Origin: a phage
Assembly: GCA_018175275.1 (NCBI GenBank)
Contig: GCA_018175275.1_4531.1
Length of the DNA stretch: 64,000 nucleotides
Strand: one strand, 5' to 3'
Under the pieces are notes generated by a model that ran no database searches, had not been told where the DNA came from, and saw nothing but the letters and a program-made list of their open reading frames with translations. This document shows, in pieces, positions 3,732 to 38,270 of the stretch. The position numbers and the translations under genes are program-made. Numbering within the stretch: position 1 is the first letter of the stretch; every line of letters starts with the position of its first letter.

Positions 3732-3742
3732 GGAGAAACTTA

Positions 3743-4099: not shown

Positions 4100-4650
4100 T
4101 GTTTATTACAAGTGATTTGCATTTTATGCACAAACGTATACGAGAGTTTGCTCCTGAATATCGACCGTGGGAGGATATGGACCACATGACAGAAGCCTTG
4201 ATCGAAGCATGGAACAAATGTGCTACTACTCCTGGTGTTAAGATGTGGCATTTGGGCGACTTCTGTTTCGGAACTGAAGAAGATACCCGTAAAATTGCTT
4301 CTCGTCTCCAAGGAGATATCACCTACTGTGTTGGGAACCATGACTACAGCAAACACCGAGAAGTGCTTGCAGAGTATGGTGAAGTGGTGTATTATGACGA
4401 AGTGAAATATCAGAAGCTGTTCTTCGTCTTAAGTCATTACCCTATGGCCTCCTGGAACAAACAAGGTCGTGGATCAATCATGCTACACGGGCATTCCCAC
4501 GGATCTTTCCCTGATGAAGCTTATGGTAAAATGTTAGATGTGGGTTGGGATGCACACGGAAAAATCTTGCATTTTGATGAGATAATTACTATGATGAGTA
4601 AACGAGATATCGTGACTGTAGACCATCACAAAATAATCAAAGGAGAGTAA
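4099..4650 (+). CDS. calcineurin-like metallophosphoesterase (candidate RNA 2',3'-phosphoesterase)
   Basis: Motifs SDLHFMH (D-x-H), GDFCFG (GD), VGNHD (GNHD); TAATG overlap with upstream gene. Confidence 0.7.
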   Translation: MFITSDLHFMHKRIREFAPEYRPWEDMDHMTEALIEAWNKCATTPGVKMWHLGDFCFGTEEDTRKIASRLQGDITYCVGNHDYSKHREVLAEYGEVVYYDEVKYQKLFFVLSHYPMASWNKQGRGSIMLHGHSHGSFPDEAYGKMLDVGWDAHGKILHFDEIITMMSKRDIVTVDHHKIIKGE

Positions 4651-4651
4651 T

Positions 4652-5584
4652 GTGACTAAATTTAATTGCGACGATTTGGTTGAAAAAGGTTTAGTTCATA
4701 AGAAAACATATAAAGAAGGAGAGTATTCTGGTCTATCTGTTCTTAAGTATAAGAACAAAGTTTTCTGGGATAACCTGTGGAACATTGATTCTCGTCTTCT
4801 AGAATGTCGCGGAATCGTTGTTGACGCTGATGACAATGTTGTTATTTGGCCTTTCACTAAGATTTTTAATCGTTTTGAGAATGGCACAGATCTACCAGCG
4901 GATGAATTTGTAGATGTGGTTCGTAAAGTAAATGGTTTTATGGCCTCTGTAGGTGTATATAAAGGTCAACTTATTGTATCGACAACAGGAAGCCTTGAAT
5001 CAGATTTTGCAAGTATTGCAAAGAATCATATTGTTTCAGAGTGTGATGACATAGAACATTTCATCAAATGGACAGAGAGTGCAAAAGCAACTTTCCTTTT
5101 TGAAATCTGTGATCCTTCTGATCCGCATATTGTCGAAGAAGAACCAGGTGCATACTTAATTGGTGCCAGAATTCAAAACCCTGATGGGACAAGTTTTATG
5201 TTACCTGAAGGTGCTCTTGATGGAATTGCTTCTGTCACCAAATTTAAGCGTCCTGAAGTTCATCCAATGGTTAAGTTTTCAGATGTTGTTGAAATGTCTA
5301 AACATTGTAAACACGAAGGGTTTGTAGTTCGTGAAACAAACTATCCGTTCAACTTACTTTTAAAAATTAAATCACCACACTATCTTACTAAGAAGTTTCT
5401 TATGCGCGGTGGAGATAAAAAGTGGGATCTGATTTGGGATAATCCAAAAAATGCCAAACAAATGGTTGACGAAGAATATTACGCTTTGTTAGAATGGATT
5501 CGAAATAATTTTACGAAGACTCAATGGGCTGCTTTAAATCAGCAAGAGCGACGTGAAAAAATCGAAAACTTTTTTGGAGGATAA
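4652..5584 (+). CDS. Rnl1-like ATP-dependent RNA ligase
   Basis: 310 aa; LECRGIVVD segment resembling T4 Rnl1 as recalled; candidate nucleotidyltransferase motif I as K-V-N-G; GTG start after AGGAG. Confidence 0.55.
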   Translation: MTKFNCDDLVEKGLVHKKTYKEGEYSGLSVLKYKNKVFWDNLWNIDSRLLECRGIVVDADDNVVIWPFTKIFNRFENGTDLPADEFVDVVRKVNGFMASVGVYKGQLIVSTTGSLESDFASIAKNHIVSECDDIEHFIKWTESAKATFLFEICDPSDPHIVEEEPGAYLIGARIQNPDGTSFMLPEGALDGIASVTKFKRPEVHPMVKFSDVVEMSKHCKHEGFVVRETNYPFNLLLKIKSPHYLTKKFLMRGGDKKWDLIWDNPKNAKQMVDEEYYALLEWIRNNFTKTQWAALNQQERREKIENFFGG

Positions 5585-5989
5585 ATGAAACAACTTATCA
5601 TTTTACGTGGCGTTTCAGGTGCTGGTAAATCTACAGTAGCAGAAATTATTTCTGAAGGTTATTGGCCTATCTGTGAGGCAGATCAATATCATTACACAGA
5701 GAGTGGTGTTTACGATTGGAAGCCAGAAAATGTAGGTAAAGCACACGCATGGTGTCAGGGTATTGTTCGTGATGCTATGGCATCTAATCTTAACAAGATT
5801 ATTGTTTCTAATACTTCAACCACAGAGAAAGAACTTAAACCTTATCTAGCTCTTGCTGAAGAGTTTGGTTATCAAGTTATCTCTTTAGTTGTTGAAAATA
5901 GGCACGGTAATGATTCAATTCACGAGGTTCCACAATATATCCGTGATCAGCAAGAGAAACGTCTTCGTGGTTCACTTAAACTTCAATAA
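5585..5989 (+). CDS. P-loop polynucleotide kinase-like protein
   Basis: Walker A GVSGAGKST near N-terminus, 134 aa, adjacent to ligase and phosphoesterase. Confidence 0.65.
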   Translation: MKQLIILRGVSGAGKSTVAEIISEGYWPICEADQYHYTESGVYDWKPENVGKAHAWCQGIVRDAMASNLNKIIVSNTSTTEKELKPYLALAEEFGYQVISLVVENRHGNDSIHEVPQYIRDQQEKRLRGSLKLQ

Positions 5990-5998
5990 GGAGAAATA

Positions 5999-6325
5999 AT
6001 GCAGATTTATACAGATGATCGTAAATATGAGACAATTTTAGATGAAGATACTGGACGAATTACCGTTCTCCGTCACGGTGAAGAGTGGCGTGATGAAACG
6101 GGAGACAATTATATCTTGTCTCTGATTCATCTTATTGAACAAATGCGTGATGATTACGCTGAACTGCATTATGAAAATGAGGCTAATAAAGTAAAATTTG
6201 AAAATGAATTAGAAGAGAAAGAATCCGAAATGGTATATCTAAAAGAAGAGATCTCCCGTTTGGAGGAAGAGATTGATGCTCTTCAAGAAGAGATTTACGA
6301 ACTCAACAACGAACTGAACGCTTAA
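5999..6325 (+). CDS. hypothetical acidic coiled-coil protein
   Basis: 108-aa ORF; AAGGAGA upstream; E-rich heptad-like C-terminus. Confidence 0.5.
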   Translation: MQIYTDDRKYETILDEDTGRITVLRHGEEWRDETGDNYILSLIHLIEQMRDDYAELHYENEANKVKFENELEEKESEMVYLKEEISRLEEEIDALQEEIYELNNELNA

Positions 6326-6334
6326 GGAGGGATT

Positions 6335-6523
6335 ATGAAAAAAGATATCGTTGTTGGTTGGCTGACTTGCCCTTGTGGTAGTAATGACATAACTGTAAAC
6401 ACAGAGGGTGATAAAAATTATTTATTCTACGGGGATAAAATCACTTGCAATACCTGCGGACGTGTTGGTATTATAGAAACCGATGATTGTTGTGCTTTTG
6501 AATCTTGGGATGAAGAAGAATGA
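6335..6523 (+). CDS. small zinc-ribbon protein
   Basis: 62 aa with CPCG...CNTCG; AAGGAGGG upstream. Confidence 0.5.
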   Translation: MKKDIVVGWLTCPCGSNDITVNTEGDKNYLFYGDKITCNTCGRVGIIETDDCCAFESWDEEE

Positions 6524-6741
6524 GTACTGCATTTTATGTTCGTAGCGGAGACGAGGATTTTCTGGCTACTTTTGATGACGGTGATATTGAAGATATGTAT
6601 GACGATATGCTTGACTATGCCAAAGGGCAAGGTTTCACAAGCATTGATTATATGTTGGCAACATCTACAACGTTACTCGACGCAGATTTGGATGAAGTGT
6701 GTAACAGATTGAAAATTTCAGTTTTTAAATGGGAGGACTAA
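6520..6741 (+). CDS. hypothetical acidic protein
   Basis: 73-aa ORF; ATGA overlap. Confidence 0.5.
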   Translation: MSTAFYVRSGDEDFLATFDDGDIEDMYDDMLDYAKGQGFTSIDYMLATSTTLLDADLDEVCNRLKISVFKWED

Positions 6742-7856
6742 TGCAACAAACAAATCAAACGCTGTATGGTAAAGATTCAAAAGGAAAACTTAAACAGTGG
6801 ACAGTGTATACAGATGGTGCAGTTGTTACTGTAGCTCATGGAAGGGTAGGTGGAAAAATCACAGAAAAATCTTATACAGCAGAAGCAAAAAACATCGGTC
6901 GTTCCAATGAAACAACACCGGAAGAACAAGCTGAACTTGAAGCTTTTGCCAAATGGACAAAACAGTTAAAGAATGGCTATTATAAAACAAAAGAAGAAGC
7001 TGAAAACCATGTTCCTTCTACACCAATGAAATGCCAGGATTATAAAGATTATCCTGAAAGGGTTGTGTTCCCTGGTTATGCACAATACAAACTGAACGGG
7101 TTACGTTCTATGATTAACATGAAAGGGGAGTGTTTATCAAAAGCTGGGGAAGTGTATAACCTGCCACCTCATTGGAAAGGTATTCCAAACTTTATTAGTG
7201 AAGTTGTTGGTCATCCTCTTGATGGTGAAGTGTTTGCTGGGTTAGGTGTCCTTAGTCTGCAACAAATTAATAGTGCCTGGAAGAAGCATAATGCAAATAC
7301 ACCTTTGCTGAATTATTACGTATATGATATTCCAGTTCCAGATCTACCGTTTGAAAAACGTGTTGATGTTCTTGCTGCTCTTAAGGCAGTAGTTGAAGAT
7401 TATGGTCTTGATGAGCTTATTTGTGTAGTTCATACAGAGTATATTGAAAACCAAGAACAGTTTGATGCTTTCTATGAAAAAGCTTTACTTGAAAAGGCTG
7501 AAGGTGTAGTATATCGTAATGCTCGCGGAGTTTACGAATTTGATAAACGCTCTTATGACGTTATTAAACGTAAACCTCGTCATACTCTTGAAGTTAAAGT
7601 AACAAATTCAAAAAGTGATAAAAATGGTGATGGAGTGTTGACAGGCGAGATGGAAAATGGTAAAGTAGTCGAATTCTTAATGCGTAAAGATGCTCATGAG
7701 ACTATCAATTATCGTAAAGCAGAGAATGCTTCTACCTTGATTAATCAGTTCGTTGAAATAGAATATGAAGAATTTTCAGATGAAGGTATTCCGACAAAAC
7801 CTGTTGGTGTTCGTATTCGAGAAATGATCCCAGGCACTTGGGAACCAGCAGAGTAA
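6741..7856 (+). CDS. ATP-dependent DNA ligase-like nucleotidyltransferase
   Basis: Motif I variant YKLNGLR (KxDGxR with Asn); GGGAGG upstream of second ATG of track ORF 6729..7856. Confidence 0.6.
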   Translation: MQQTNQTLYGKDSKGKLKQWTVYTDGAVVTVAHGRVGGKITEKSYTAEAKNIGRSNETTPEEQAELEAFAKWTKQLKNGYYKTKEEAENHVPSTPMKCQDYKDYPERVVFPGYAQYKLNGLRSMINMKGECLSKAGEVYNLPPHWKGIPNFISEVVGHPLDGEVFAGLGVLSLQQINSAWKKHNANTPLLNYYVYDIPVPDLPFEKRVDVLAALKAVVEDYGLDELICVVHTEYIENQEQFDAFYEKALLEKAEGVVYRNARGVYEFDKRSYDVIKRKPRHTLEVKVTNSKSDKNGDGVLTGEMENGKVVEFLMRKDAHETINYRKAENASTLINQFVEIEYEEFSDEGIPTKPVGVRIREMIPGTWEPAE

Positions 7857-7865
7857 GGAGGAAAA

Positions 7866-8060
7866 ATGTTTTTAGCCATTCTAATCGTTTTCAGTGCGCT
7901 TTCTTTTTATTGTATGAATGCTTCGGAAAACTTTCCTAAGAATTCAAAGAAAAGAACCGTATGTGTTGCGATTGATTCATGTATGTCTGGAGTTGGGTAT
8001 GCGGTAGTTTCTTGTTTCTTAGCTTATCATTGTGCAAAATACTTGGAGGCATTTTTATGA
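7866..8060 (+). CDS. small membrane protein
   Basis: 64 aa, hydrophobic N-terminus; AAGGAGG upstream. Confidence 0.5.
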   Translation: MFLAILIVFSALSFYCMNASENFPKNSKKRTVCVAIDSCMSGVGYAVVSCFLAYHCAKYLEAFL

Positions 8061-8239
8061 TAATTTTAGCAACAATTCTTATGATGTTGATAGCAATTGC
8101 TATTGTAATACTGGCATCTTTTCCAGCGGATAAATGGTATTTCAATATTCCACGTATGCTTGTTTTCGGTTTTGCAGGAATTTACATGGGTGAGTCTGTA
8201 GTAAATATTAGCAACTTTCTAGAAAGCTATTTTAAATAA
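8057..8239 (+). CDS. small membrane protein
   Basis: Internal ATG of track ORF 7979..8239; GGAGG upstream; ATGA overlap; two hydrophobic segments. Confidence 0.5.
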   Translation: MIILATILMMLIAIAIVILASFPADKWYFNIPRMLVFGFAGIYMGESVVNISNFLESYFK

Positions 8240-8248
8240 GGAGTTATA

Positions 8249-8974
8249 ATGATCGAGAATTTTTTTAAAGATATTAAATTCGATACTGAATTTTTCAAAA
8301 ATGCAGCAAAGCACGTGATTGATTGGAATGCTAAAGCGCGAGGTGGTGAACAACCTGAATTTACTCAAGAGCTATTTATGTCCCAAATCGGGTTCGTTCG
8401 TGAAGAACTTAAAGAGTATGAAACAGCCGCGAAAGTAAACGATCATGTAGAACTCTTGGACGCAGCAGCAGATATTTTTGTAGTATCCAGTTATCTGACT
8501 TACATGTTCTTTGGTGAAGAACATACGATGAATTTCTTGGACTATACTGTAGGTGATGTTTTTACTCCGACTGTGTATACTGACTTTGATGCTTTGGAAC
8601 AAACATTTACAGAGCCAGTTCAAATGGCACTAATGGCTGCTGGTATTATGCGTATGTCTCGTGACACTCTCATTCGTTCAAAATATCCAGAAAAGAAAAT
8701 TATTAAAGAAGTATTGAAAAGTAACGATTCCAAGTATCCAACTAAACAACAGTTGCTGAAAACTTGGAAAACTTCAGATATCGATTCAGCCATTGCACAA
8801 GAATGCACTGCAATTGAAGAACGAAACGCCAATCGTCCAGAAGGAGCATACACGGGTGTTCATGCTGTTTATAATGAAAAACAGAAAGTGTATGTGTTCT
8901 TTGATGATAAAGGTAAGATCATGAAGTGGTCAGGTTTCATTAAACCCAACATTGCAGCTATTATCAAAAAATGA
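8249..8974 (+). CDS. hypothetical protein, possible MazG-like all-alpha NTP pyrophosphohydrolase
   Basis: 241 aa; EELKEYE...ELLDAAADIF pattern reminiscent of MazG/dCTPase EExxE...D motifs; AAGGAG upstream. Confidence 0.4.
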   Translation: MIENFFKDIKFDTEFFKNAAKHVIDWNAKARGGEQPEFTQELFMSQIGFVREELKEYETAAKVNDHVELLDAAADIFVVSSYLTYMFFGEEHTMNFLDYTVGDVFTPTVYTDFDALEQTFTEPVQMALMAAGIMRMSRDTLIRSKYPEKKIIKEVLKSNDSKYPTKQQLLKTWKTSDIDSAIAQECTAIEERNANRPEGAYTGVHAVYNEKQKVYVFFDDKGKIMKWSGFIKPNIAAIIKK

Positions 8975-21635: not shown

Positions 21636-22628
21636 ATGCGCTATCTGGTAACAGGTGGTCTTGGTTTTATTGGGAGTGCCGTGGTGCGCTCTCTTTGTCA
21701 AGATCCTAATAACGAAGTTTTTGTCGTTGATAAGATGAGCTATGCAGCAGATATTGAGAATGTAGGCGATATCACTCACGTTAAACTAAGCATGACAGAT
21801 TTGGCAAACGAAGCCCAAGTAAAAAGTTTAGTAGTAGAGTGCAATCCCGATTTCATCATTCACTTAGCGGCAGAGAGTCATGTGGATAATTCTATCAAGA
21901 ATCCACGAGTTTTCATCGACTCCAATATTATTGGTACATACAATTTATTGGAAGCTGCAAGGCTCCTCCCAAAGAATAAACTGAAGATGTTCGTACACGT
22001 CTCCACAGACGAAGTGTACGGCGATATGGCAGACTCTGGCGTTCCCTTTACCGAAGAGACAGCTTATGCCCCTTCAAGCCCATACAGTGCGTCTAAGGCA
22101 GCATCTGACCATCTTGTGAAAGCTTGGCACCGTACCTACGATTTGCCTGTTGTGATAACCAACTGCTCCAATAACTTTGGACCCTATCAACATCCAGAAA
22201 AGCTGATCCCAAAAATCATCACAAGTATCTTGACGAATAAAGAGATTCCGGTGTATGGTAAAGGCGATCAGGTGCGAGACTGGCTTTTTGTTGAGGATCA
22301 TGCGCGAGCTATTCTTCAAGTGGCAACAGGTGGAGAACCAGGTAAAACGTATAATGTGGGAACACGTAATCCCAAAACCAATATGGAGATCATCTATATG
22401 GTTTGTGACTACATGGATGCTGTACATCCAGAAGCAGGAACCTACCCTTCTTCCAACTTGATAACTTTTGTTGAAGATCGTAAAGGGCATGACTTGCGTT
22501 ATGAAATCAATCCTTCTAAGATAGAGTCTGAACTGGGTTGGAGTGCAAACTCTACATTTGAACAAGATCTCTACTCAACGATTGAATGGTACTTAAACAA
22601 CCCTCAATGGTGGAGTGGGAAGATTTAA
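21636..22628 (+). CDS. rfbB: dTDP-glucose 4,6-dehydratase
   Basis: N-terminal [14 protein letters not shown] Rossmann motif, 330 aa; GGTAAGGAG upstream. Confidence 0.85.
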
Positions 22629-22636
22629 GGAGGGCT

Positions 22637-23515
22637 ATGAAAGGTATTATTTTGGCGGGAGGAAGTGGAACCCGCCTTCATCCGGTAACACGCAGTGTGA
22701 GCAAGCAATTGCTCCCTGTGTATGACAAACCCATGATCTACTACCCTTTATCGGTATTGATGTTGGCTGACATTAAGGATATCTTAATCATCACCACACC
22801 AGGCGATCAGGAAGACTTTGAGTATCTTCTCGGAGATGGGTCTATGTTTGGGATAAAACTCACTTACGCAATCCAATCCGAGCCGCGAGGTCTTGCGGAC
22901 GCTTTCATCATCGGTAAAGATTTTATCGGAGAAGACTCTGTTGCTCTTATTTTAGGTGACAACCTATTCTTCGGACAAAGCTTTGGTAAACTACTGATTA
23001 ACGCCAGTGAGATGGTAGATGTTTGTGGCGGAGCTTGTATCTTCGGGTATTTGGTGAAAGATCCTGAACGATTCGGTGTGGTTGAATTTGGGAGTAATCG
23101 TCAAGCTATTTCTATTGAAGAGAAACCTGAAAATCCTAAATCAGATTATGCTGTCACAGGTTTGTATTTCTATGATAACTCTGTTGTTCAACGTGCATTA
23201 GAAGTAACCCCTTCCGCGCGTGGAGAACTGGAGATCACAGATATCAATCGCAGCTACCTCGAAGACAGGAAGTTACAAGTGGAAGTTCTCGGACGAGGAT
23301 TTACTTGGCTTGACACAGGAACACACGCCAGTCTGATGGAAGCTGGTCAATTCGTGCAGACTATTGAGAACCGTCAAGGGTTGAAGATTGCGTGCCTGGA
23401 AGAAATTGCTTTCAAAAAAGGGTGGATTTCTTTAGAGACTTTGGTATATCATGGAAACTCACTGAAGAAAACAGAGTACGGGCAATACCTACTCAAATTA
23501 GCGGAGAGAAAATGA
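22637..23515 (+). CDS. rfbA: glucose-1-phosphate thymidylyltransferase
   Basis: [16 protein letters not shown] signature; internal ATG of track ORF 22586..23515 with AAGGAGGG upstream. Confidence 0.85.
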
Positions 23516-24078
23516 AAGTAGAAAAAACAAAAATTGAAGGTGCGGTAATTATCAAACCAGACGTTTATAAAGATGATCGTGGTTTCTTTTTAGAAACATA
23601 TAATGAACAAAAATACGAAGATATCATCGGTAGACAAACTTTCGTTCAAGATAACATGTCTAAATCAAACTTCGGTGTTTTGCGAGGAATGCACTTTCAA
23701 ACAAATAATCCGCAAGGTAAGCTTGTTCGTTGTGTAAGTGGGGAAGTATTGGATTTCGCTGTAGACCTACGTAAAGATAGTCCTACTTACGGTGCTTGGG
23801 ACGGTGTTGTTCTTCGTGCACGACACCATACACAGTTCTGGCTTCCACCTGGTTTGGCGCATGGTTTTATAGTGTTGAGTATGGATGCTATCTTCGAATA
23901 CAAATGCACAACTCCATACGACCCTTCCAGCGAACAAAGTTTACGTTGGGATGATCCTGATATAGGGATTGATTGGGGCTTCGATATGATTTTTGACGAA
24001 GATTTTAAACCTATCTTATCAACAAAAGATGCAATGGCTAAGTCTTTTCAACAGCTACGTAGCGAGGGTGTATGCTAA
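23512..24078 (+). CDS. rfbC: dTDP-4-dehydrorhamnose 3,5-epimerase
   Basis: 188 aa cupin-like; YKDDRGFF and RGMHFQ motifs; ATGA overlap with rfbA stop. Confidence 0.8.
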
Positions 24079-24914
24079 CATATCTGGTATTGGGTGGTAA
24101 TGGACAACTGGGACAAGCTTTACGTAAAGTGGCTCCTTCAAATGTGTCTTTAATTTATCCTAAAGAACGTGTAGATATTACAAATTTTGAAGCTGTGCGA
24201 AACGCTATTGTTGAAGATTATGTAGATGGTGTTATTAATTGCGCTGCTTATACGGCTGTAGATAAAGCAGAACAGGATTTTGCTACTGCTTTGGCTGTTA
24301 ATGCCTATGGCCCTGCAAATATTGCGGCAGTGTGCAGCAAACTTAAAATTGATTTTGTGCATATTTCTACAGACTATATTTTTAATTATTCTCATCCTAT
24401 TTTTGAAGACACTACACCTAACCCGATAAACAATTATGGGTATACGAAAGAACTCGGTGAAAAAATGGTGCGAGGAGTTAACCCAAACGCATATATTATT
24501 CGAACAGCGTCTGTATATAGTGAATTTGGAAATAACTTTCTAAAAACCATGTTGTCTCGCTATAATGATGGACAACGTGATTTTATTATTGTTGCTGATC
24601 AGTTCTCTTGTCCAACATATGCCCCAGATTTAGCAGAAGCTATTTTTGAAGTATTAAAAACAGGTTGGTCAAGATCTGTAAAGACTTACCATTTTGCAGG
24701 AAGCCATCTTATTTCTTGGGCGGAGTTTGCGGAAAAGATCTTGACACAGATGCCAGAACCTGTTAAGATATCGGCGGTATCAGCTTCAACCTATAATGCT
24801 CCAGCAGCACGTCCGGTGAAGTCACAATTAGTAACCAGTCACTATCTTACAAAATCAGATTTAAATAAAGGTATTGAACGGTCTTTAGCAGTATTACTTA
24901 ATAAGGAGAGGTAA
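24072..24914 (+). CDS. rfbD: dTDP-4-dehydrorhamnose reductase
   Basis: N-terminal LVLGGNGQLGQAL; 280 aa; start overlaps rfbC stop. Confidence 0.75.
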   Translation: MLTYLVLGGNGQLGQALRKVAPSNVSLIYPKERVDITNFEAVRNAIVEDYVDGVINCAAYTAVDKAEQDFATALAVNAYGPANIAAVCSKLKIDFVHISTDYIFNYSHPIFEDTTPNPINNYGYTKELGEKMVRGVNPNAYIIRTASVYSEFGNNFLKTMLSRYNDGQRDFIIVADQFSCPTYAPDLAEAIFEVLKTGWSRSVKTYHFAGSHLISWAEFAEKILTQMPEPVKISAVSASTYNAPAARPVKSQLVTSHYLTKSDLNKGIERSLAVLLNKER

Positions 24915-26665: not shown

Positions 26666-27169
26666 TTGATGGGTGTAGCAACAATAGCTATCGGAAGAAG
26701 TGGTATAGATGAGTGCTATCAAACGGGACTCGTAAAACCTAACGAATTTCGTCAAATTTGTGTAAACCATATTGAAAAAGAGATTGCTCTTACTTTAGAG
26801 AATATGACCCTCCGAGATAAACTGGAAATGTTTAAATGTTGGTGTCTAGGAGAAGATTGGCTTTTAAACCATTTTCAAGAACTTTCTGATAGTAAAGAAA
26901 GCTTGTTTGATTGTATAATAGGAATAGCTGGCTCCGATCCTAGCCTTCTGCACATAACAGAAGAAGAGGCGAAGTTACTGTTCTTAAGTAATTTGTTTAA
27001 TAAGAAAGCACTGCTTGTTCGTGATTGCAGTGATCTTCTTAATAACCCGCTCGCAACGTCTGATCAAATTTTTGTTGACAAAGAGACACTACGTGCGATA
27101 GAATACATCTGCAAATATGTGAATGGCGGGAAAGCGGTTCTTAAAACATTAACAGAGGAGGAAGAATAG
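26666..27169 (+). CDS. hypothetical protein
   Basis: 167-aa ORF; AAGGAGG upstream. Confidence 0.55.
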   Translation: MMGVATIAIGRSGIDECYQTGLVKPNEFRQICVNHIEKEIALTLENMTLRDKLEMFKCWCLGEDWLLNHFQELSDSKESLFDCIIGIAGSDPSLLHITEEEAKLLFLSNLFNKKALLVRDCSDLLNNPLATSDQIFVDKETLRAIEYICKYVNGGKAVLKTLTEEEE

Positions 27170-27861
27170 TGACGACAATTATTGCAACCAAGAATAAGAT
27201 TTTGAGTGATGGTAAGGTAACTTTTGGCGGACGTGTAGATTCTATTAATTTCAAAAAGGTCCGAAAAATTGGAGATTACCTTGTAGGTGGTGCTGGTCGT
27301 CTGACCTCCGTGCTTTCTTTCTTTCAATGGTTTGAACAAAACCTACAGTGCGAAGCAGCACGTGATGCTGTCCCTGGTTTGATGATTCATTCTGATCCAG
27401 ATAAAGAAGATGAAGAGTTTATTGCGCTTGTTGTTCATCCAGACGGACGTATTTTCCTGCACGAAGGTAACAATCCAACACGTGCATATCCGATTGATGA
27501 AGAATATTATGCAGTAGGAAGTGGGTCAGACTTTGCTTTAGCTGCTCTTGATGCAGGGGCAACACCAGAACAAGCTATGGAAGTAGCTAAAAAGCGAGAT
27601 GCTTTTTCTGGTGGTGAAACATTTATTGAAGAACAAGACGAGATTATTGAATTAACAGACGATGATTTAGAAAACTTCTCCAAAGAAGAATTAATCAATC
27701 TTTTGAAATTCGGTAATCCCTACGGTGAAGAAGAACCTCGTAACGTGGCAGGTAACGAGGCGGACACTGAAGAAAAATCTGTTGCAGAAAACAACTTGAC
27801 TTCTAAATCTGAAAATATTAATCTCGTAAATGTGGCGGATTTCGAAGGAACCGCTATTTAA
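27169..27861 (+). CDS. HslV (ClpQ)-like Ntn-hydrolase peptidase with acidic C-terminal extension
   Basis: N-terminal MTTII (Thr1), KKVRK, GGAG and AVGSGSDFALAA parallel HslV; GTG start after AGGAGGAAGAA. Confidence 0.6.
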   Translation: MTTIIATKNKILSDGKVTFGGRVDSINFKKVRKIGDYLVGGAGRLTSVLSFFQWFEQNLQCEAARDAVPGLMIHSDPDKEDEEFIALVVHPDGRIFLHEGNNPTRAYPIDEEYYAVGSGSDFALAALDAGATPEQAMEVAKKRDAFSGGETFIEEQDEIIELTDDDLENFSKEELINLLKFGNPYGEEEPRNVAGNEADTEEKSVAENNLTSKSENINLVNVADFEGTAI

Positions 27862-29332: not shown

Positions 29333-29527
29333 ATGCAGAGCGGAGAAGAACTTTTAGAGAAACAATTCTCAACGCGTCAACAAGCTTTAAGTTATATGGT
29401 TTTTCTAAGTAATCTTGATGTGAATGAGATACTTTTACGGCGCGAAGGTAATTTCTGGAGCGTTAAATATCATGCAACAAGGTCTGTAATCTACCTGGAA
29501 GAGGCGGAATTCTCTTTGGTAGAATGA
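29333..29527 (+). CDS. hypothetical protein
   Basis: 64-aa ORF; AAGGAGGG upstream; preceded by hairpin/T-run at 29292-29322. Confidence 0.5.
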   Translation: MQSGEELLEKQFSTRQQALSYMVFLSNLDVNEILLRREGNFWSVKYHATRSVIYLEEAEFSLVE

Positions 29528-29541
29528 TCCGAGGAGTAGTT

Positions 29542-30114
29542 ATGCGTTCAACTTTCACTGGCAAAATAAACGCTGGTTTGATTTTTACCGCAGTAAGCAT
29601 TCTTAGCAAAAAGTTTAAAGTTGTTAACTTACCTGTGTGTGTCGATTTCGATCATGTTTTTGATCCTTCGAACCCCACTCGTTGCATAGTAAGGAGTAAT
29701 GTTGAAAACCCAACAGAAAATCTTTTTTATGTAACAAAACCATCTCAAAGCATACTTAACCAGGTTGAGGCGAAATTGATACCTAACGGTAAATATTACT
29801 CCTTTTTACCTTGTAAGTCGGTTGAAGTAGAGAATAGCAGTACTTTCGCTAACAACTTGTCTGTATTCGTTTTCTTTGTTTCGCACGAAGATGAAACAGA
29901 TGAAATGGTAGCAACAGTGAGATCACTTTATGACTCTTTAGGGGTTGTTTATAGACAACAAGTGTGCGAAAATAATAAAGCCTGTGTAGATTTCATTATC
30001 AACGGTATTTGTGTTTGTAGAGTAGAATCTTTTTGGCTGCACGATACATATGTGACTGTAGCAGAGGTTATATCTGAACCAAAATTTAGTCATGCGGTTT
30101 CGTTAATAATTTGA
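29542..30114 (+). CDS. hypothetical protein
   Basis: Internal ATG of track ORF 29524..30114 with GAGGAG upstream. Confidence 0.55.
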   Translation: MRSTFTGKINAGLIFTAVSILSKKFKVVNLPVCVDFDHVFDPSNPTRCIVRSNVENPTENLFYVTKPSQSILNQVEAKLIPNGKYYSFLPCKSVEVENSSTFANNLSVFVFFVSHEDETDEMVATVRSLYDSLGVVYRQQVCENNKACVDFIINGICVCRVESFWLHDTYVTVAEVISEPKFSHAVSLII

Positions 30115-30124
30115 GGAGGAAGGA

Positions 30125-30454
30125 ATGGAAATTACTACAGAACAAGCCCTTATCGACGAGGGTCGTAAAATCTTAGAAAAGCATTTAGGGGAGATTCATA
30201 AAACTCCTGGCTATTTGGGTTGGAGAATTGTTGAAGCTGTAGATTTCCTTCCTCGTAACAGTAAAAGCGTCGAAATGCGATCTCTTTTCTTATTAGTAAA
30301 GGTGGATGGGGATACACCTTTTAAAGATGCCGCAGAGCATATTGAAAAAGTTGAAGAGAAAGCTTATGCAGAATTTGCCGATCTTGTTTTAGAACAAAAG
30401 ATTGAAGGAAAGGTGAATATTTTTATTTTCTTAGATTTTGAGGAGGATAAGTGA
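30125..30454 (+). CDS. hypothetical protein
   Basis: 109-aa ORF; GAGGAGGAAGG upstream. Confidence 0.55.
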   Translation: MEITTEQALIDEGRKILEKHLGEIHKTPGYLGWRIVEAVDFLPRNSKSVEMRSLFLLVKVDGDTPFKDAAEHIEKVEEKAYAEFADLVLEQKIEGKVNIFIFLDFEEDK

Positions 30455-31194
30455 TCATACATAGAGAAATTACTGTTAAAAGCGATCAAGATCTTTTTAT
30501 AATTGGAGATCTACACGGTTGTTATAATTTGTATGAAAAAGGAAAGGCAAAGTTAGGTATCCGAGATACAGATGTAGTTGTATCTTTAGGAGATCTTACT
30601 GACCGTGGAAAGCAAAACTTTCGTTGTGTTTTAGAATTTACTCGTAAACACAACCGCTACGCTATTCGTGGAAATCATGAAGACATGATGATTAAAGGTA
30701 TGCTGGAAGGAGATCGTAGCTACTTCGAGTGTTGGTATCAAAATGGAGGATATACAGTCCTTGAAGAATGTGGTGAAGAAGGAGCTACAGCCTTAGCAAT
30801 GATGACAGAAGATTTACCTGTTGTTCTCATTGTTAACTACAGAGGCATGAAACTTGCGTTTATTCATGGTGGGTATCCATCTTCTTTGGAATATCTCCCT
30901 GTAACAGATATTCCAGAATACACTTTGAAGATGACAAAAACACAGGAAAACCGTTTTGCTGAAGCACTTATGTGGGACAGAGATATGGTGGACTGTGCTA
31001 AAGAGGGAATGAAACTTCCTGTTGTGATGGGTGTGGACTATGTGTTTCATGGACACTCTTATGTAAAAACACCTATTATCAATGCGAATCGTGTTTATAT
31101 GGATACTGGATCTGTGTTCAATAATAACTTAACATTTGCTTATTTCGATATGGACGGTGGTCTTCAATTTTATTCAACTCTTGAGGAGGATTAA
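30451..31194 (+). CDS. PPP-family Ser/Thr protein phosphatase (lambda PPase / ApaH-like)
   Basis: GDLHG, GDLTDRG and GNHE motifs in order; GTG start after GAGGAGGA. Confidence 0.75.
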   Translation: MIIHREITVKSDQDLFIIGDLHGCYNLYEKGKAKLGIRDTDVVVSLGDLTDRGKQNFRCVLEFTRKHNRYAIRGNHEDMMIKGMLEGDRSYFECWYQNGGYTVLEECGEEGATALAMMTEDLPVVLIVNYRGMKLAFIHGGYPSSLEYLPVTDIPEYTLKMTKTQENRFAEALMWDRDMVDCAKEGMKLPVVMGVDYVFHGHSYVKTPIINANRVYMDTGSVFNNNLTFAYFDMDGGLQFYSTLEED

Positions 31195-31505
31195 TGTATA
31201 AGATTACAATTATTCAAAGTGTAGGTAATATCCGTAAAGAAGTTATCTTAGAAACAGAAGATGTTAATCTTGTTCGTGAGATTGTTTTTAAGGAAGATGA
31301 CCTGCAAGCTGTAGAATCGGATGCACCGAATCTTATGGTGGATCAAGAATATTCTGAACTTCGTCGTATTTTTGAAGAGATTCAGAAGAAAGAAACACAA
31401 CCTACCATAAAACCTTTTGGTCCTTATGATCCGAGCAATCCTAGCAGTCCTTGGATCATGAGAAATACGGAACCCTATTATGCACCTTTTGAAATTACTT
31501 GCTGA
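31194..31505 (+). CDS. hypothetical protein
   Basis: 103-aa ORF; GAGGAGGA upstream. Confidence 0.55.
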   Translation: MYKITIIQSVGNIRKEVILETEDVNLVREIVFKEDDLQAVESDAPNLMVDQEYSELRRIFEEIQKKETQPTIKPFGPYDPSNPSSPWIMRNTEPYYAPFEITC

Positions 31506-31512
31506 GGTGTTT

Positions 31513-32094
31513 ATGGCAGAATTGTTTTATACGGGAGTTGGAAGTAGAGACATCTCCAAAGAAGAGTGGGCTTTGATGGTAGGCATAGGGAAATGGCTTT
31601 CCAACCTTGGATTTAAATTAAGGTCTGGGAAGGCAGAGGGTAGTGATTCTGCTTTTGAAACAGGTGTCCAAGAGTCTGAAAATCCTAGCAACAAGGAGAT
31701 TTATGTACCTTGGGAAAATTTCAAAGGTAATCAGATTCCAGGTGATGTTATTGTTCTTGCAAAACCAGATACAATGAACTATGCTATCTCTGTGCAATGG
31801 ATCAAAGATGTTCACCCAGCTTATGAAAAGCTTAAGCAGGGCGCTAGAAAATTGCACCAACGTAATGTGCATCAGGTGTTAGGTAAAGATTTGGAGAATC
31901 CTGCTCCATCATGTTTCTTGTTGGCTTGTGCCGATACTGATAAACATGGAGATGCAAAAGGTGGAACAGCTACGGCTTGGAAGATAGCTAAAGCCAATAA
32001 TGTTCCTTGTTTAAACATTCGTGGGAAAACAAAACAAGAGATTTACGATTTTCTACGACCTTTGGTAATGAGGGCAATAACAAGTGATTCCTAA
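31513..32094 (+). CDS. DprA/Smf-like Rossmann-fold (SLOG-type) protein
   Basis: GVGSRDIS, SGKAEGSD, QRN and GGTATA segments in DprA-like order; internal ATG of track ORF 31480..32094. Confidence 0.45.
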   Translation: MAELFYTGVGSRDISKEEWALMVGIGKWLSNLGFKLRSGKAEGSDSAFETGVQESENPSNKEIYVPWENFKGNQIPGDVIVLAKPDTMNYAISVQWIKDVHPAYEKLKQGARKLHQRNVHQVLGKDLENPAPSCFLLACADTDKHGDAKGGTATAWKIAKANNVPCLNIRGKTKQEIYDFLRPLVMRAITSDS

Positions 32095-33923: not shown

Positions 33924-34865
33924 ATGGTGTTAATTGGTAGCCGTGCATTACAAATTCATGCTATGGACATGGGAAAAGACTTGTATCGCCCTTGTGTAGA
34001 TTTAGATTATCTCTGTACAGAACAAGAGTGGGAAGAATTATCAAAAATGTTCTCTCAAGACGAGTTTGTTGAACTTGTAGAACGTAAAGGGAACAAAGGC
34101 CATGTCAAAATGATAGCTGGTGCACATTTGGAATACGATATTGCTTCTCAAGGAGATAGCACAGAAGCTTTGATTAGTTATTGTGAAGATTCTGATGATG
34201 TTCGTCGAACTTACGCTGGACATGTTGTTGCTCCTTTAGATGTGCTCTACCTTCTTAAAATGAGTCATCGTTTTAAAAAGGATAGTCCTCACTTCTTTAA
34301 AACTATGAAAGATATTCATTTCATGCGGTCACTGGGCGCAAAGATCCCAGAAAATCTTAAGAGTATTTATGAGTTGCGTGAGAAAGAAACATACACTTAC
34401 TCTCATCCGAACTTAAACGTAAAAAGTAAAGAGTTCTTTAAAGGTGACGAGGTTCCGTATGTTTATGATCATGATTCTATCCATGAAGCAATCGCGTTAA
34501 TGGATGCTCCAGCATATAAATCTTATATGAAAGATGGAAGTGAAGTTATGACCAGCAAAGAAAAGTTTTTTGCTCAACCAAAACATGTGCGGCTGTTAGG
34601 TGTTTATGAAGAAGCGTGTGTTTTGGCTTTGGAACGTTCACAAATTCCTTTCGGTGAAGAGATCGGAGGTCCAACCCCTAAGCAAAGTTTTATAATGGCT
34701 TTATCTAAAGTCTGCACATCCATCACTAGTGGTTGGTTTAGGGAATATGCTTGGGAAAACTTTTATGTTGTTATTAAGCTATATGAAAACATGGGCGAAA
34801 ACGACTATGTTGAACGTTTTAAAGCTAATCAACATGTAGTAAAGCCTTTTGAAGGAGGTTATTAA
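33924..34865 (+). CDS. hypothetical protein with possible minimal nucleotidyltransferase motif
   Basis: 313 aa; N-terminal GS...DLD arrangement; GAGGAGAAA upstream. Confidence 0.55.
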   Translation: MVLIGSRALQIHAMDMGKDLYRPCVDLDYLCTEQEWEELSKMFSQDEFVELVERKGNKGHVKMIAGAHLEYDIASQGDSTEALISYCEDSDDVRRTYAGHVVAPLDVLYLLKMSHRFKKDSPHFFKTMKDIHFMRSLGAKIPENLKSIYELREKETYTYSHPNLNVKSKEFFKGDEVPYVYDHDSIHEAIALMDAPAYKSYMKDGSEVMTSKEKFFAQPKHVRLLGVYEEACVLALERSQIPFGEEIGGPTPKQSFIMALSKVCTSITSGWFREYAWENFYVVIKLYENMGENDYVERFKANQHVVKPFEGGY

Positions 34866-34866
34866 T

Positions 34867-35262
34867 ATGTGTGGATATCTTTCAGAAAGTTATTTCAAAG
34901 TGACGCATGAGGATTTAGAAAAAGCACGATTGAAACTGACAGCTATTATTGAATACTCTAATACTGTTGAACACAGATTAAAGACTACTAAAGTATCTGT
35001 TCCTTGTTGGTTAGGTTTACGGCATAAAATAATGTCTCAACATGACCATGTTGTTCGAGAGATGCATGGTTGGTGTTGGTTTCACGATGTGGCTCTGCAT
35101 TTTGGTTATATTACAGAAGAAGAGCATAGATTCTGTGAACTAACATATCGTATTCCAACCCTTCACGATTTAGATTTGTGGAAGAAAGCAAACGAGATTT
35201 TTCTTACAGAAAGTGATTGGCGTAAAGTTATGGCTTGTCTTGAATGGAGGGGTAATGAGTAA
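34867..35262 (+). CDS. hypothetical protein
   Basis: Internal ATG of track ORF 34849..35262 with GGAGG 8 nt upstream. Confidence 0.5.
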   Translation: MCGYLSESYFKVTHEDLEKARLKLTAIIEYSNTVEHRLKTTKVSVPCWLGLRHKIMSQHDHVVREMHGWCWFHDVALHFGYITEEEHRFCELTYRIPTLHDLDLWKKANEIFLTESDWRKVMACLEWRGNE

Positions 35263-35938
35263 AACAGTTTTGTCTATGTTTGACGGATCTGGGATCATGG
35301 TGTTACGTTATGCCGAAGCAGGTCACAAGTGTTTTTGTGTAAACGCTGATGAAGGGGATCACGGTAAATACGAGGTTAGGATGGAGCACCCAAACATAAC
35401 CTATGTGAATGCTTGGATAGATTCTACATTCAACCCTGAAGATCATGGGATACCTAAACCCGATATTATTTTTGGATTTCCACCTTGCACTATGTTAGCA
35501 GGTAGTGGTAGCAAACACGAACGCAGCACAGAGGAATTGGATGAAGCTTTAGCTAATATTCGTGTAGTGGAAGCTTTGGGTAACAAATATAATGTTCCTT
35601 GGATGATTGAGAACCCAGTAGGTAAACTTTCAACCTTATGGCGTAAACCCGATTTTTACTTTGATCCTTATGAGTATGGTGGGTATTTGTTTGAAGAGGA
35701 AGGAAGCTTTCATCCTAAAATGCCTACCCGTGATGGGTATACAAAGAAAACTTGTATTTGGCACGGCAATGGTTTTGTTCAACCAGTGAAGAAACCAGTA
35801 GATCATATAGGCTGCTTCTGGGGTTGGAAAAGCTTAGGTGGAGCTAGTGCAAAAACAAAACAACTTAGATCCCTAACCGCACGTGGTTTTGCTCGTGCCG
35901 TGTTTTTGTCTAACAATCTTCTAGATAAGGAGAAATAA
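35255..35938 (+). CDS. C5-pyrimidine methyltransferase-like protein (compact, no obvious TRD)
   Basis: FDGSG (motif I-like), GFPPCT (PCQ-like with Cys), ENPVG (ENV-like); internal ATG of track ORF 35213..35938. Confidence 0.5.
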   Translation: MSKTVLSMFDGSGIMVLRYAEAGHKCFCVNADEGDHGKYEVRMEHPNITYVNAWIDSTFNPEDHGIPKPDIIFGFPPCTMLAGSGSKHERSTEELDEALANIRVVEALGNKYNVPWMIENPVGKLSTLWRKPDFYFDPYEYGGYLFEEEGSFHPKMPTRDGYTKKTCIWHGNGFVQPVKKPVDHIGCFWGWKSLGGASAKTKQLRSLTARGFARAVFLSNNLLDKEK

Positions 35939-36588
35939 TGTCAAATTCAAAACCAGTAGTTGCTTATCAAGTAGATCGTAATGATGGTGAAGGAAGTGTT
36001 GTTATTTTCAGTACACACGGTCTTGAGGCTCGTCGAAAAGGTGCATATCGTTTAGAATGTGAGTTTGAAGACTGCACAAGCCACCGTGTCAAACAATTCG
36101 ATCAATATGCTGATAAAGGCTTCGTCCCTATCAAAGCCTTACTGGAAGATGGTTGGTGGGTATATTCTGCTTTTGATGGTGTTAGACTCGACGAACCTGT
36201 AGGAGGTCTTGAGGCAGATTTTGACGAATGCGAAGATGGCTTGTATATTGAAGAGGATCTTGTATTTTCCCTTGACGAGAAAAGCGTGTGGAAGAACTGG
36301 GAAGAAATGGAACGTCACGCGCATTTTATCAACAATGCTTTGATTCGTAAAGCTTGGTTTATGGAGGCGGTGAAGGTAGCGTATCCGCAGTTCACCTTTA
36401 CAGAGGTTTGGGGCGGTCCACACCACATCACCCATACAGCATTTTTCGACTTCCCTGGTTCACGTTACAAAGGTAATATAATGTGGGACTGGGATGAGAA
36501 TAAACAACCTTCGGCTCAAGACTTCCGTTGTTATGTTTGCCAAGGCGATCAAGAAGCCCTTGACAAATACCTACAAAGTCTGGTATAG
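35938..36588 (+). CDS. hypothetical protein
   Basis: 216-aa ORF; AAGGAGAAA upstream. Confidence 0.55.
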   Translation: MSNSKPVVAYQVDRNDGEGSVVIFSTHGLEARRKGAYRLECEFEDCTSHRVKQFDQYADKGFVPIKALLEDGWWVYSAFDGVRLDEPVGGLEADFDECEDGLYIEEDLVFSLDEKSVWKNWEEMERHAHFINNALIRKAWFMEAVKVAYPQFTFTEVWGGPHHITHTAFFDFPGSRYKGNIMWDWDENKQPSAQDFRCYVCQGDQEALDKYLQSLV

Positions 36589-36646
36589 TGCCAGCATCTG
36601 AACAAAGCCTCCTGTTTCAGGGGGCTTTTCTTTTATGGGAGGAAAT

Positions 36647-37138
36647 ATGTTTCAAGTAGAAATTCATGTGCACAACAGTTGTTCAAATTGCGAAACTTGT
36701 GGTTACAATAGTTCAACCATGATCACTATTAGCGGAGACTTAGGAGATGCCAAGTTTGGCGAAGTTGCAAGCTGCTTCAGCGGAGAGGATGCAGATTGGC
36801 ATGATATTGCACACTGGTTGGTGAGCAAACTAAAAGAAAAAGAGAAACCATTTCCTGCTCTGCTTGATCGTTCTCTTGTGGAAGATGCAGGTAAAGCATA
36901 TGCAGACTATGCATATGCAGACGGGAAATATTTGGAAGATGATAAGGCTAACCATTTGCTTTATGTTTACTATGAAGCTGAATCTGCCTACGATAATTAT
37001 TACAGCATGTCCAACATTCTACGTTTGTTTGCGGAGTTTGATATTTACTTTGAAGTGAGTTATTCTCAAGACGAAGTGCACGATTTGGATGACGAAGATT
37101 ATGATGATTATGAGGAGGAAGAATGCCAAGACGATTAA
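36647..37138 (+). CDS. hypothetical Zn-finger protein with acidic tail
   Basis: CSNCETCG near N-terminus; D/E-rich C-terminus; GGGAGGAAA upstream; preceded by hairpin/T-run at 36607-36635. Confidence 0.5.
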   Translation: MFQVEIHVHNSCSNCETCGYNSSTMITISGDLGDAKFGEVASCFSGEDADWHDIAHWLVSKLKEKEKPFPALLDRSLVEDAGKAYADYAYADGKYLEDDKANHLLYVYYEAESAYDNYYSMSNILRLFAEFDIYFEVSYSQDEVHDLDDEDYDDYEEEECQDD

Positions 37139-37923
37139 TAGTGATCAGCGGCGCTGGCTTAAGCGCCGATAGCGGTGTTCGTACTTTCCGCACTGACACA
37201 GAAAGTGGCAAAGCTTTGTGGGATGAATACGACCTTTCTGAAGTGTGCGACATTTTCAACTTCCGTGCTGGATACCAACAAGAACAGTGTGTTCCTGGGG
37301 CTGTTGGCGGATTAGATGCAGAGGGATACAACCTCTACCGTAAAACTCATGACTTCTACAATAAACGTCGCGTAGAGATGGATAGTGTAACTCCTAACGC
37401 TGCGCATTACCAGATCGCGGAATGGTTTCAAGAGTACGGCTGTGATCGTGTTATCAACATCACGACAAACGTAGATGATCTTCTGGAACAAGCGGGTGTT
37501 GTTCATGAAGATGTTCTACATGTTCACGGCTTCCTGCCTGAAGTGATCGTAGACAATAGAATCATCAAAGATGTTGGCTATGCTGCTATCGATGTGGATG
37601 ATTACAAGTATGTGAAGCCCAATGTAGTGTTCTTTGGGGAGACTGCCCCATTGTATAACGATATGTACCACATCTTAGACGGCTTGACGGCTCAAGATAT
37701 GGTGATTGTAGTGGGTTGCTCTAATCAAGTTATCAATTTTAACTGGGAGCTTTTTCCTGCTCTTAATAGCGGGACAAAAATGGTTGTAGTTAACCCTGGA
37801 GTTAATTACGAAGAAACACTTCTCTATGAAGATCGTGGAGTTTTTGTTTACCGAGAAAAAGCTGCAACAGCCTTCAGCAATGAAGGTTTCATTAAAATGG
37901 TCGAAGACCACTTAAACAAATAA
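37123..37923 (+). CDS. SIR2-family protein lacking the zinc-ribbon module
   Basis: GAGLSADSGVRTFR, TTNVDDLLEQAG, VHG, VVFFGE, VVGCS in sirtuin order; GAGGAGGAAGA upstream. Confidence 0.65.
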   Translation: MPRRLIVISGAGLSADSGVRTFRTDTESGKALWDEYDLSEVCDIFNFRAGYQQEQCVPGAVGGLDAEGYNLYRKTHDFYNKRRVEMDSVTPNAAHYQIAEWFQEYGCDRVINITTNVDDLLEQAGVVHEDVLHVHGFLPEVIVDNRIIKDVGYAAIDVDDYKYVKPNVVFFGETAPLYNDMYHILDGLTAQDMVIVVGCSNQVINFNWELFPALNSGTKMVVVNPGVNYEETLLYEDRGVFVYREKAATAFSNEGFIKMVEDHLNK

Positions 37924-37929
37924 ACCACT

Positions 37930-37955
37930 CAAGGGGCTTCGGCCCCTTTCTTATT
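37930..37955 (+). terminator. terminator-like hairpin
   Basis: AGGGGC-TTCG-GCCCCT followed by TTCTTATT. Confidence 0.5.
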
Positions 37956-38241: not shown

Positions 38242-38270
38242 CAAAGGCACCCAAGTGGGTGCCTTTTCTA
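38242..38270. terminator. bidirectional rho-independent terminator between convergent gene blocks
   Basis: AAGGCACCC-AAGT-GGGTGCCTT flanked by A-run and T-run. Confidence 0.6.

Follow-up and report, generated by a model that had tools for sequence, protein, structure and literature searches.

A predicted class III sirtuin with a degenerate zinc ribbon in a Phapecoctavirus genome: relatives, gene context and possible functions

The sirtuin gene and its expression signals

The DNA analyzed here is a stretch of 64,000 nucleotides (nt) from a phage (contig GCA_018175275.1_4531.1), which we call the window. It corresponds to a Phapecoctavirus (Stephanstirmvirinae); its identity is 99% with Escherichia phage SKA64 and about 95% with phAPEC8. 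At positions 37123..37923 of the + strand it contains an ATG-started open reading frame (ORF) for a sirtuin of 266 amino acids (aa), recognized by Pfam and PHROG matches, which is the orthologue of phAPEC8 gp197 and belongs to PHROG 2162. Judging from its sequence and its structural model, this protein is a canonical sirtuin of the PF02146 family, class III and similar to CobB and SIRT5, with a decayed zinc ribbon and its catalytic residues kept. The gene is already annotated as Sir2-like in both phAPEC8 and SKA64, and public databases already contain a 100% identical protein. Homologues are found by tblastn in 979 of 50,697 phage records (about 2%), which belong to several virus families: T5, phi92, rV5-like phages, KVP40 and phages of Klebsiella, Salmonella and Erwinia are among the carriers.

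The translation signals of the gene are good. A strong Shine-Dalgarno sequence, GAGGAGG (37112..37118, + strand), is found 4 nt ahead of the ATG, within the last codons of the upstream ORF. This upstream gene, phrog_9509 (36635..37138, + strand, 167 aa), overlaps the sirtuin start by 16 nt. Ahead of the pair there is a promoter-like site, TTGACA-18-TATAGT, at 36560..36589 (+ strand; 11/12 with a TG extension, a consensus match only). Two terminator-like hairpins are found on the same strand, one at 36604..36628, between phrog_8514 and phrog_9509, the other at 37931..37948 (GGGGCTTCGGCCCC followed by a T-run), 8 nt past the sirtuin stop codon. Because of these flanking hairpins and the promoter-like site, phrog_9509 and the sirtuin gene look like a two-gene unit, with the sirtuin in second place. 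They are likely to be co-transcribed and translationally coupled.

The sirtuin gene sits at the end of a long rightward block of nucleotide metabolism and replication genes. A perfect bidirectional terminator hairpin at about 38243-38266 separates this block from a long series of small unknown genes which run leftward, and the GC skew changes sign at the same place as the direction of transcription. As to base composition, two of the 2-kb bins of the window have the highest GC content, 0.43 versus roughly 0.36-0.41 elsewhere: the sirtuin stretch (36-38 kb) and the stretch at about 21636-24914 (+ strand), which carries a full dTDP-L-rhamnose pathway (homologues of rfbB, rfbA, rfbC and rfbD in the SKA64/phAPEC8 annotation).

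Catalytic motifs

A first-pass annotation made from the letters of the sequence had placed a SIR2-family protein here, with the sirtuin motifs in canonical order. Both points have been confirmed. The protein matches Pfam SIR2 (PF02146) with 72.3 bits (cutoff 24, E-value 6.5e-20) and PHROG 2162, 'Sir2 (NAD-dependent deacetylase)', with 341.6 bits (E-value 5.9e-102, residues 2-266 on positions 10-271 of a 277-position profile), and a phmmer search of the Protein Data Bank (PDB) finds Escherichia coli CobB (E-value 1.8e-15). The motifs are where they had been proposed, and they align with the functional residues of CobB. In particular, the conservation of the catalytic histidine and of the NAD-binding motif has been verified by alignment: His135 corresponds to CobB His147, and the GAG...FR residues are invariant.

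The motifs, all on the + strand, are the following. The NAD-binding motif GAGLSADSGVRTFR (residues 10-23, 37150..37191) is of the GAGxSxxSGIxxFR type; G10, A11, G12, S17, G18, F22 and R23 are invariant with CobB, and S17, F22 and R23 are also invariant in an alignment of 134 sequences. FYNKRR (residues 78-83, 37354..37371) contains the class III Y-x-x-R pair: Y79 and R83 correspond to Y92 and R95 of CobB, and F78, Y79 and R83 are invariant in the 134 sequences. TTNVDD (residues 114-119, 37462..37479) is the TQN(I/V)D motif with Thr in place of Gln; N116 is invariant and D118 nearly so. HVHG (37519..37530) includes the catalytic His135, which, like G136, is invariant, the 134 sequences included. 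VVFFGE (residues 168-173, 37624..37641) forms the substrate-binding strand and the FGE loop, with P166 and F171 invariant. GCS (residues 198-200, 37714..37722; VGCS spans residues 197-200) aligns with the G(T/S)S NAD-binding motif, with a clade-specific Cys for Thr. Finally, Cys42 (37246..37248), nearly invariant in the family alignments, occupies the position of CobB Ala76, on the roof of the acyl pocket; we take this position to be that of SIRT5 Ala86. Reportedly, a Tyr-x-x-Arg pair with a small residue at Ala86 makes up the class III acidic-acyl pocket, as Du et al. are said to have described for SIRT5 in 2011.

When CobB and four divergent phage homologues are compared with our protein, the invariant residues are G10, A11, G12, S17, G18, F22, R23, F78, Y79, N80, R83, P91, N92, H95, T114, N116, H133, H135, G136, P166, F171, E173, D192, G198 and N224. 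The core of this set holds over the 134 sequences, with identities down to 28%. Three traits are specific to the clade: TTNVDD for TQN(I/V)D, GCS for GTS, and an insertion of about 20 residues in the helical module (residues ~49-70, 37267..37332, + strand). About one Cys-free lineage in two has the insertion, which is variable in sequence and is modelled with a pLDDT (predicted local distance difference test) value of about 97. The gene is evidently under strong purifying selection, as judged by pairwise ratios of nonsynonymous to synonymous substitutions (dN/dS), which are 0.037 versus phAPEC8 and about 0.10 (up to 0.11) versus relatives 68-78% identical. The insertion and the ribbon remnant evolve faster than the rest of the protein, yet they are still constrained.

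The zinc ribbon remnant

The first-pass annotation had also claimed that the Cys4 zinc-binding insertion between HG and VVFFGE is replaced by a short Cys-free linker. There is indeed no Cys in this segment: the four of the protein are scattered, at positions 42, 56, 107 and 199. Nevertheless, the segment is a degenerate hairpin of 28 aa (residues 137-164, 37531..37614, + strand, FLPEVIVDNRIIKDVGYAAIDVDDYKYV) with a conserved DVGY, which aligns to the CxxC..(V/I)GY..CPxC of related viral sirtuins. Its length is 28-34 aa in most close relatives and 35-38 aa in relatives whose Cys4 ribbon is intact. When 164 relatives were scanned for motifs, the 87 closest had no Cys between HG and FGE, and 50 more distant ones had at least four, as CxxC...CxxC. 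The representative alignment includes viral relatives from large contigs (L070, L074-L087) with the pattern CxxC-x4-(V/I)GY-x8-10-CPxC. The Cys-free clade aligns with it column by column: the first knuckle is substituted, the second is deleted and the central (V/I)GY is kept. In the AlphaFold2 model the segment forms a beta-hairpin (strands 136-143 and 147-150) and a loop, with pLDDT 97-98. Because of this alignment and this hairpin, the zinc module is considered degenerate, a remnant which has lost its ligands and its second knuckle, rather than a replacement. The same two results rule out the short linker.

We have followed the history of the zinc state by parsimony on a rough neighbour-joining tree, which requires at least six changes. 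Our sirtuin falls in the largest Cys-free clade, whose 79 sequences have Thr or Ala where Gln would stand; 20 others form a Cys-free clade of their own, which retains TQN. Among bacteria, an Algoriella sirtuin is likewise Cys-free, and relatives from Verrucomicrobiota retain Cys4 with IGY. Zinc ligands have been lost repeatedly within the canonical CobB-like lineage, with the catalytic site kept.

Structure and comparison with other sirtuins

The AlphaFold2 model, built on the alignment of 134 sequences, has a mean pLDDT of 95.1 and a predicted template modelling (TM) score of 0.91; only the cofactor-binding loop (residues 21-40) has low confidence. It shows the sirtuin fold: Rossmann domain, helical module and beta module. 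The 50 best Foldseek matches in the PDB are only CobB, Af1, SIRT5 and Af2 entries (for CobB, E-value 2.4e-17, TM 0.73/0.85). A comparison of ThsA/DSR with CobB-type sirtuins had been proposed together with the suggestion of a defence-type protein. It goes the other way: CobB, Af1, SIRT5 and Af2 are the closest, with the ThsA type and other defence proteins ranking behind (PsSIR2 12.7, KomC 12.1, SIR2-HerA 12.0, ThsA 11.2, Avs5 10.1, FAM118B 9.8). SIR2_2 (PF13289) is not significant, with 12.2 bits versus 24.5. PADLOC models give nothing meaningful, the best match (E-value 3e-4) covering 39 residues of a candidate system.

CobB (PDB 1S5P and 6RXJ), a class III deacetylase, desuccinylase and lipoamidase, is the best match both in sequence and in structure, with the same single-domain size. 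The two proteins have in common GAGxS..FR, FYNxRR (Y92/R95), PN..H, N130, D132, H147, FGE, GxS and N. Identity is 26-31%. The phage protein lacks the zinc cysteines and has a ribbon about 10 residues shorter; Q129 is changed to Thr, GTS to GCS and Ala76 to Cys. Unlike CobB, it has the 20-residue insertion in the helical module and lacks the basic N-terminal extension. Human SIRT5, a desuccinylase and demalonylase, shares the Y-x-x-R pair, the small residue at the Ala86 position and a high structural similarity. However, it is only about 22% identical, and it has the Cys4 ribbon and a canonical TQNID.

Sirtuins of rV5-like and T5-like phages are 49-62% identical to ours, with the same Cys-free ribbon, TTNVDD and GCS. 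A more distant member of the family is the Sir2/CobB of KVP40-like Vibrio phages (phiSt2, phiGrn1); our protein has 36% full-length identity to that of KVP40. The KVP40 protein differs in having TANVS instead of TTNVD and no insertion in the helical module, and the KVP40 genome has NAD salvage genes. The neighbours of its gene are unlike those in the window, with one exception: in both, a DUF7275 homologue is found about 2.8 kb upstream. Skliros et al. 2016 (PMC5107563) modelled this KVP40-like protein on CobB and already noted the absence of the zinc ligands, proposing that salt bridges stabilize the structure. They found the catalytic His and the acetyl-lysine tunnel conserved, predicted a deacetylase, reported transcription of the phage gene by 20 min post-infection, and gave a list of carriers which includes T5 and other phages.

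Zinc-less SIR2 domains had been described in the first-pass annotation as typical of NAD+-consuming effectors. This is correct for the SIR2_2 type, in which the whole beta module is absent (PMC12700824). The defence SIR2 NADases (ThsA, DSR1/2, SIR2-HerA, SIR2-APAZ/pAgo, Avs5; Pfam SIR2_2) and FAM118 share with our protein the Rossmann-type NAD core and have no bound zinc. The rule does not extend to the phage sirtuin, which has a CobB-like fold.

Gene neighbourhoods

The gene phrog_9509 is found directly 5' of the sirtuin gene throughout Stephanstirmvirinae, with a homologue in 140 phage records. The protein shows the conserved pattern C-E-T-C-G...C and ends in a strongly acidic tail. Roles as partner, regulator or substrate of the sirtuin are conceivable; its weak homologues in jumbo phages do not adjoin a sirtuin gene. 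Four records labelled as Campylobacter phages, B15, C12, D1 and A150 (MG065650, MG065635, MG065646 and MG065639), carry both genes, and these share 50-86% identity with the genes of E. coli Phapecoctavirus and rV5-like phages. The host labels look doubtful.

Further upstream, on the + strand, there are three other conserved genes. The first, phrog_8514 (35938-36588), belongs to a very narrow family, with 12 clusters among 5.8 billion proteins. It is always found 0.8-1.3 kb upstream of a sirtuin gene, in seven lineages. Its AlphaFold2 model is mediocre (pLDDT 68), the C-terminal half being weakly similar to NTF2/cystatin-like folds. The second (35213-35938) codes for a C5-cytosine-methyltransferase-like protein of ~227-241 aa (phrog_757, 'DNA methyltransferase') with FDGSG, GFPPCT and ENPVG motifs, apparently without a target-recognition domain, and with no Pfam match at E<0.01. 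It might act on something besides duplex DNA. These two genes are conserved together upstream of the sirtuin gene in seven dereplicated lineages. The third (33924-34865) codes for a protein of 313 aa with DUF7277 and DUF7275 domains, whose invariant residues (H115, D130, H132, H183-D184 and H187) are suggestive of a metal-dependent hydrolase, perhaps HD-like. PHROG, Pfam and NCBIfam scans gave no function for phrog_8514, phrog_9509, phrog_15991 or phrog_16551, only DUF7275/DUF7277 for the 313-aa protein and only the phrog_757 label for the 241-aa protein. Profile searches against PDB sequences found nothing significant for phrog_8514, DUF7275 or the methyltransferase-like protein.

The same rightward block contains, on the + strand, genes for an HslV-like peptidase (27169-27861), a 196-aa protein assigned to PHROG 4806, 'histidyl tRNA synthetase', without a Pfam match (29524-30114), and a DprA-like protein (31480-32094). 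A calcineurin-like phosphoesterase at 30451-31194 (+ strand) matches an RNA-ligase PHROG weakly and in part, and the SKA64 note for it is 'polynucleotide kinase-phosphatase'.

Far from the sirtuin gene, the + strand of the window contains a complete predicted module for RNA end repair and ligation: cREC (3384-3728), metallophosphoesterase (4099-4647), T4-type RNA ligase (4652-5581), AAA_33 kinase (5585-5986), ATP-dependent DNA ligase (6741-7853) and MazG-like pyrophosphohydrolase (8249-8971). These coordinates are tblastn match ranges. The module at 3384-8971 is syntenic with the rV5-like module which includes the sirtuin gene. In SKA64 its coordinates are higher by about 1.29 kb, and those of both genomes coincide at 36 kb; therefore, at least one indel, about 1.3 kb in size, must lie between 9 and 24 kb.

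In other phages the context of the gene is variable. Bas59 (rV5-like) has the gene order RNA ligase, cREC, sirtuin, MazG-like; a polynucleotide kinase and a phosphoesterase are in divergent orientation. The T5 gene, which has a promoter to itself, is found with nrdD upstream and, downstream, HAD_SAK_2 and two DUF7415 genes. In an Erwinia jumbo phage the gene lies between Nampt/NMNAT genes and a fusion of a Nudt16-like Nudix domain with cREC. This is the one jumbo phage in which a linkage to NAD salvage is seen; no Nampt or NMNAT is found in the 64-kb window. We have also dereplicated 80 IMG/VR loci, which left 24 Cys-free representatives, and scanned every ORF up to 2.6 kb away. Pfam families which recur among these neighbours are DUF7415 (8 loci), ATP-dependent DNA ligase (7), NrdD (6), T4 RNA ligase, AAA_33 kinase and metallophosphoesterase (5 each), HAD_SAK_2 (4) and cREC (3); PIN and 2H/Acb1 are seen at one locus each. 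No SLOG, HerA, pAgo, STAND or TIR partner is fused to the 266-aa single domain or adjacent to it in the neighbour scans. A macrodomain partner, such as SirTM proteins have, was not found among the scanned neighbours.

Possible functions

Part of the reaction is well supported whatever the substrate: NAD+ binding, release of nicotinamide, transfer of ADP-ribose to an oxygen nucleophile and a second step assisted by His135. The nucleophile would be seated in the class III pocket formed by Tyr79, Arg83 and the small Cys42, and His135 would activate a ribose hydroxyl, which enables the second step. The identity of the acceptor is what we infer. Our preferred function, to which we give a probability of roughly 45%, is that of an NAD+-dependent lysine deacylase, possibly with a preference for acidic acyl groups. 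The acceptor would most likely be an acyl-lysine on host or phage proteins, and from the YxxR pair one may suspect groups like succinyl or malonyl. The protein would be expressed from the nucleotide metabolism and replication block, probably together with phrog_9509 in a unit of two genes. A deacylase was also one of the activities considered in the first-pass annotation, whose leaning towards an NADase or ADP-ribosyltransferase we do not share, with no defence SIR2 match found.

Several observations weigh against a deacylase. The cutoffs of the NCBIfam CobB-type models are not reached: the best score is 99.5 bits versus 243, and the others are 40-82 versus 221-395. The Gln of TQNxD contacts the NAD ribose in the structures of SIRT5 and Sir2Tm; it is Thr115 in our protein, and the Cys-free clade as a whole has Thr or Ala there. 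The zinc module, whose ligands are lost here, has been reported to be necessary for deacetylation by canonical sirtuins (PMC12700824). In relatives, the gene sits amid genes for RNA end processing, not protein modification. No test of a phage sirtuin, whether biochemical or genetic, was found in a literature search which could miss a paper in a subscription journal.

The main alternative is RNA repair. From gene neighbourhoods, Iyer, Burroughs, Anantharaman and Aravind (Iyer et al. 2022, PMC9503650, section 3.7.3) have predicted that most viral sirtuins remove RNA 2'-phosphates in the manner of KptA/Tpt1. The 2'-phosphate, for example in a tRNA cut by host anticodon nucleases whose 2',3'-cyclic phosphate has been opened, would attack C1'' of NAD+. 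Then the 2''-OH of ADP-ribose would take off the phosphate as ADP-ribose 1''-2'' cyclic phosphate, leaving an end which the phage RNA ligase may seal. The YxxR anion pocket would hold a phosphate in place of a carboxylate. The two-step NAD+ chemistry of KptA/Tpt1 is formally analogous (an oxygen nucleophile at C1'', then the 2''-OH at an acyl or phosphoryl centre), and so is its genomic company in some phages; its fold is unrelated, of the ADP-ribosyltransferase type and not Rossmann, and we have found no sequence or structural match between it and the sirtuin. The neighbourhoods behind the prediction are partly reproduced by Bas59 and by our 24 Cys-free loci, and cREC adjoins the sirtuin gene in two very distant lineages, Bas59 and the Erwinia jumbo phage. 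No part of the module is missing from the phage in the window (cREC, phosphoesterase, RNA ligase and kinase at 3384-5986, MazG-like at 8249-8971). A change of substrate would also fit the loss of a protein-binding zinc module and the change of Gln to Thr.

Nevertheless, RNA repair, though a serious rival, seems to us less likely than a deacylase as the function of this protein. For the RNA-repair clade of Iyer et al. 2022 the prototypes are the sirtuins of Escherichia phage V5, of Proteus phage Mydo, of phage SP15 and of Serratia phage BF. By its sequence our protein belongs to the clade of these V5/SP15-type sirtuins, within the Cys-free group of 79. Unlike the pattern of that clade, the gene in the window is not linked to the RNA module: it is 28-34 kb away from it, in the context C5-methyltransferase-like, phrog_8514, phrog_9509, sirtuin, and none of these conserved neighbours, nor DUF7275, has a recognizable RNA-repair function. 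No RNA ligase is annotated within about 6 kb on either side of the T5 gene. Genes of phages group together by timing, so that DNA ligase (7 loci) and NrdD (6) are equally frequent neighbours. What cREC and HAD_SAK_2 do is itself only predicted, action on RNA is not known for any sirtuin, and the conserved residues are exactly those of the acyl-lysine site. A broader version of the same idea, also taken from Iyer et al. 2022, is that the whole Cys-free clade, with our protein in it, has moved from acyl-lysine to a phosphorylated nucleic acid end, as a Rossmann-fold analogue of Tpt1/KptA which would take 2'-phosphates off RNA with NAD+ and so finish the repair, by the phage, of tRNAs cut by anticodon nucleases of the host. 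Phosphate would then occupy the former carboxylate pocket with its YxxR pair, and the protein-binding zinc module would be free to decay. Our data are compatible with this version but do not single it out, and we give it a slightly lower probability.

It is improbable that the protein is an NAD+ glycohydrolase, or a mono-ADP-ribosyltransferase acting on proteins or nucleic acids, used for host takeover or for excluding competing phages. A Rossmann-type NAD core and the lack of zinc are shared with defence NADases. On the other hand, the protein does not match any defence SIR2 family and its fold is nearest to deacylases. It is a single domain, without the sensor or oligomerization domain of known NADase effectors, it has no macrodomain partner among the scanned neighbours, and the window contains no detected NAD salvage genes. 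An unregulated NADase would hurt a lytic phage which depends on host metabolism. A defence-style NAD+-depleting effector is a less likely role. As for a dead enzyme, or a decoy or sponge which merely binds NAD or ADP-ribose, its fold compromised by zinc loss, this is very improbable: the zinc ligands and the Gln of TQNxD are gone and the NCBIfam equivalog cutoffs are not reached, but all other catalytic and NAD-binding residues are invariant over 134 diverse sequences, dN/dS is 0.04-0.11, the model is compact and very confident, remnant hairpin included, and the family is kept in 979 phage records across several virus families.

Significance

The gene, its family (which has its own PHROG) and the zinc-less finger are already known: Sir2 is annotated in hundreds of phages and the finger was described in 2016. 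Our analysis corrects the shortcut by which a zinc-less SIR2 protein is taken for a defence-like NADase. Zinc ligands have been lost repeatedly in the canonical CobB-like lineage, with the catalytic site intact. There are now two mutually exclusive predictions for phage sirtuins, protein deacylase and RNA 2'-phosphate remover. If the first is true, these proteins would show how lytic phages rewrite host protein acylation; if the second is true, sirtuin chemistry would reach into RNA repair.

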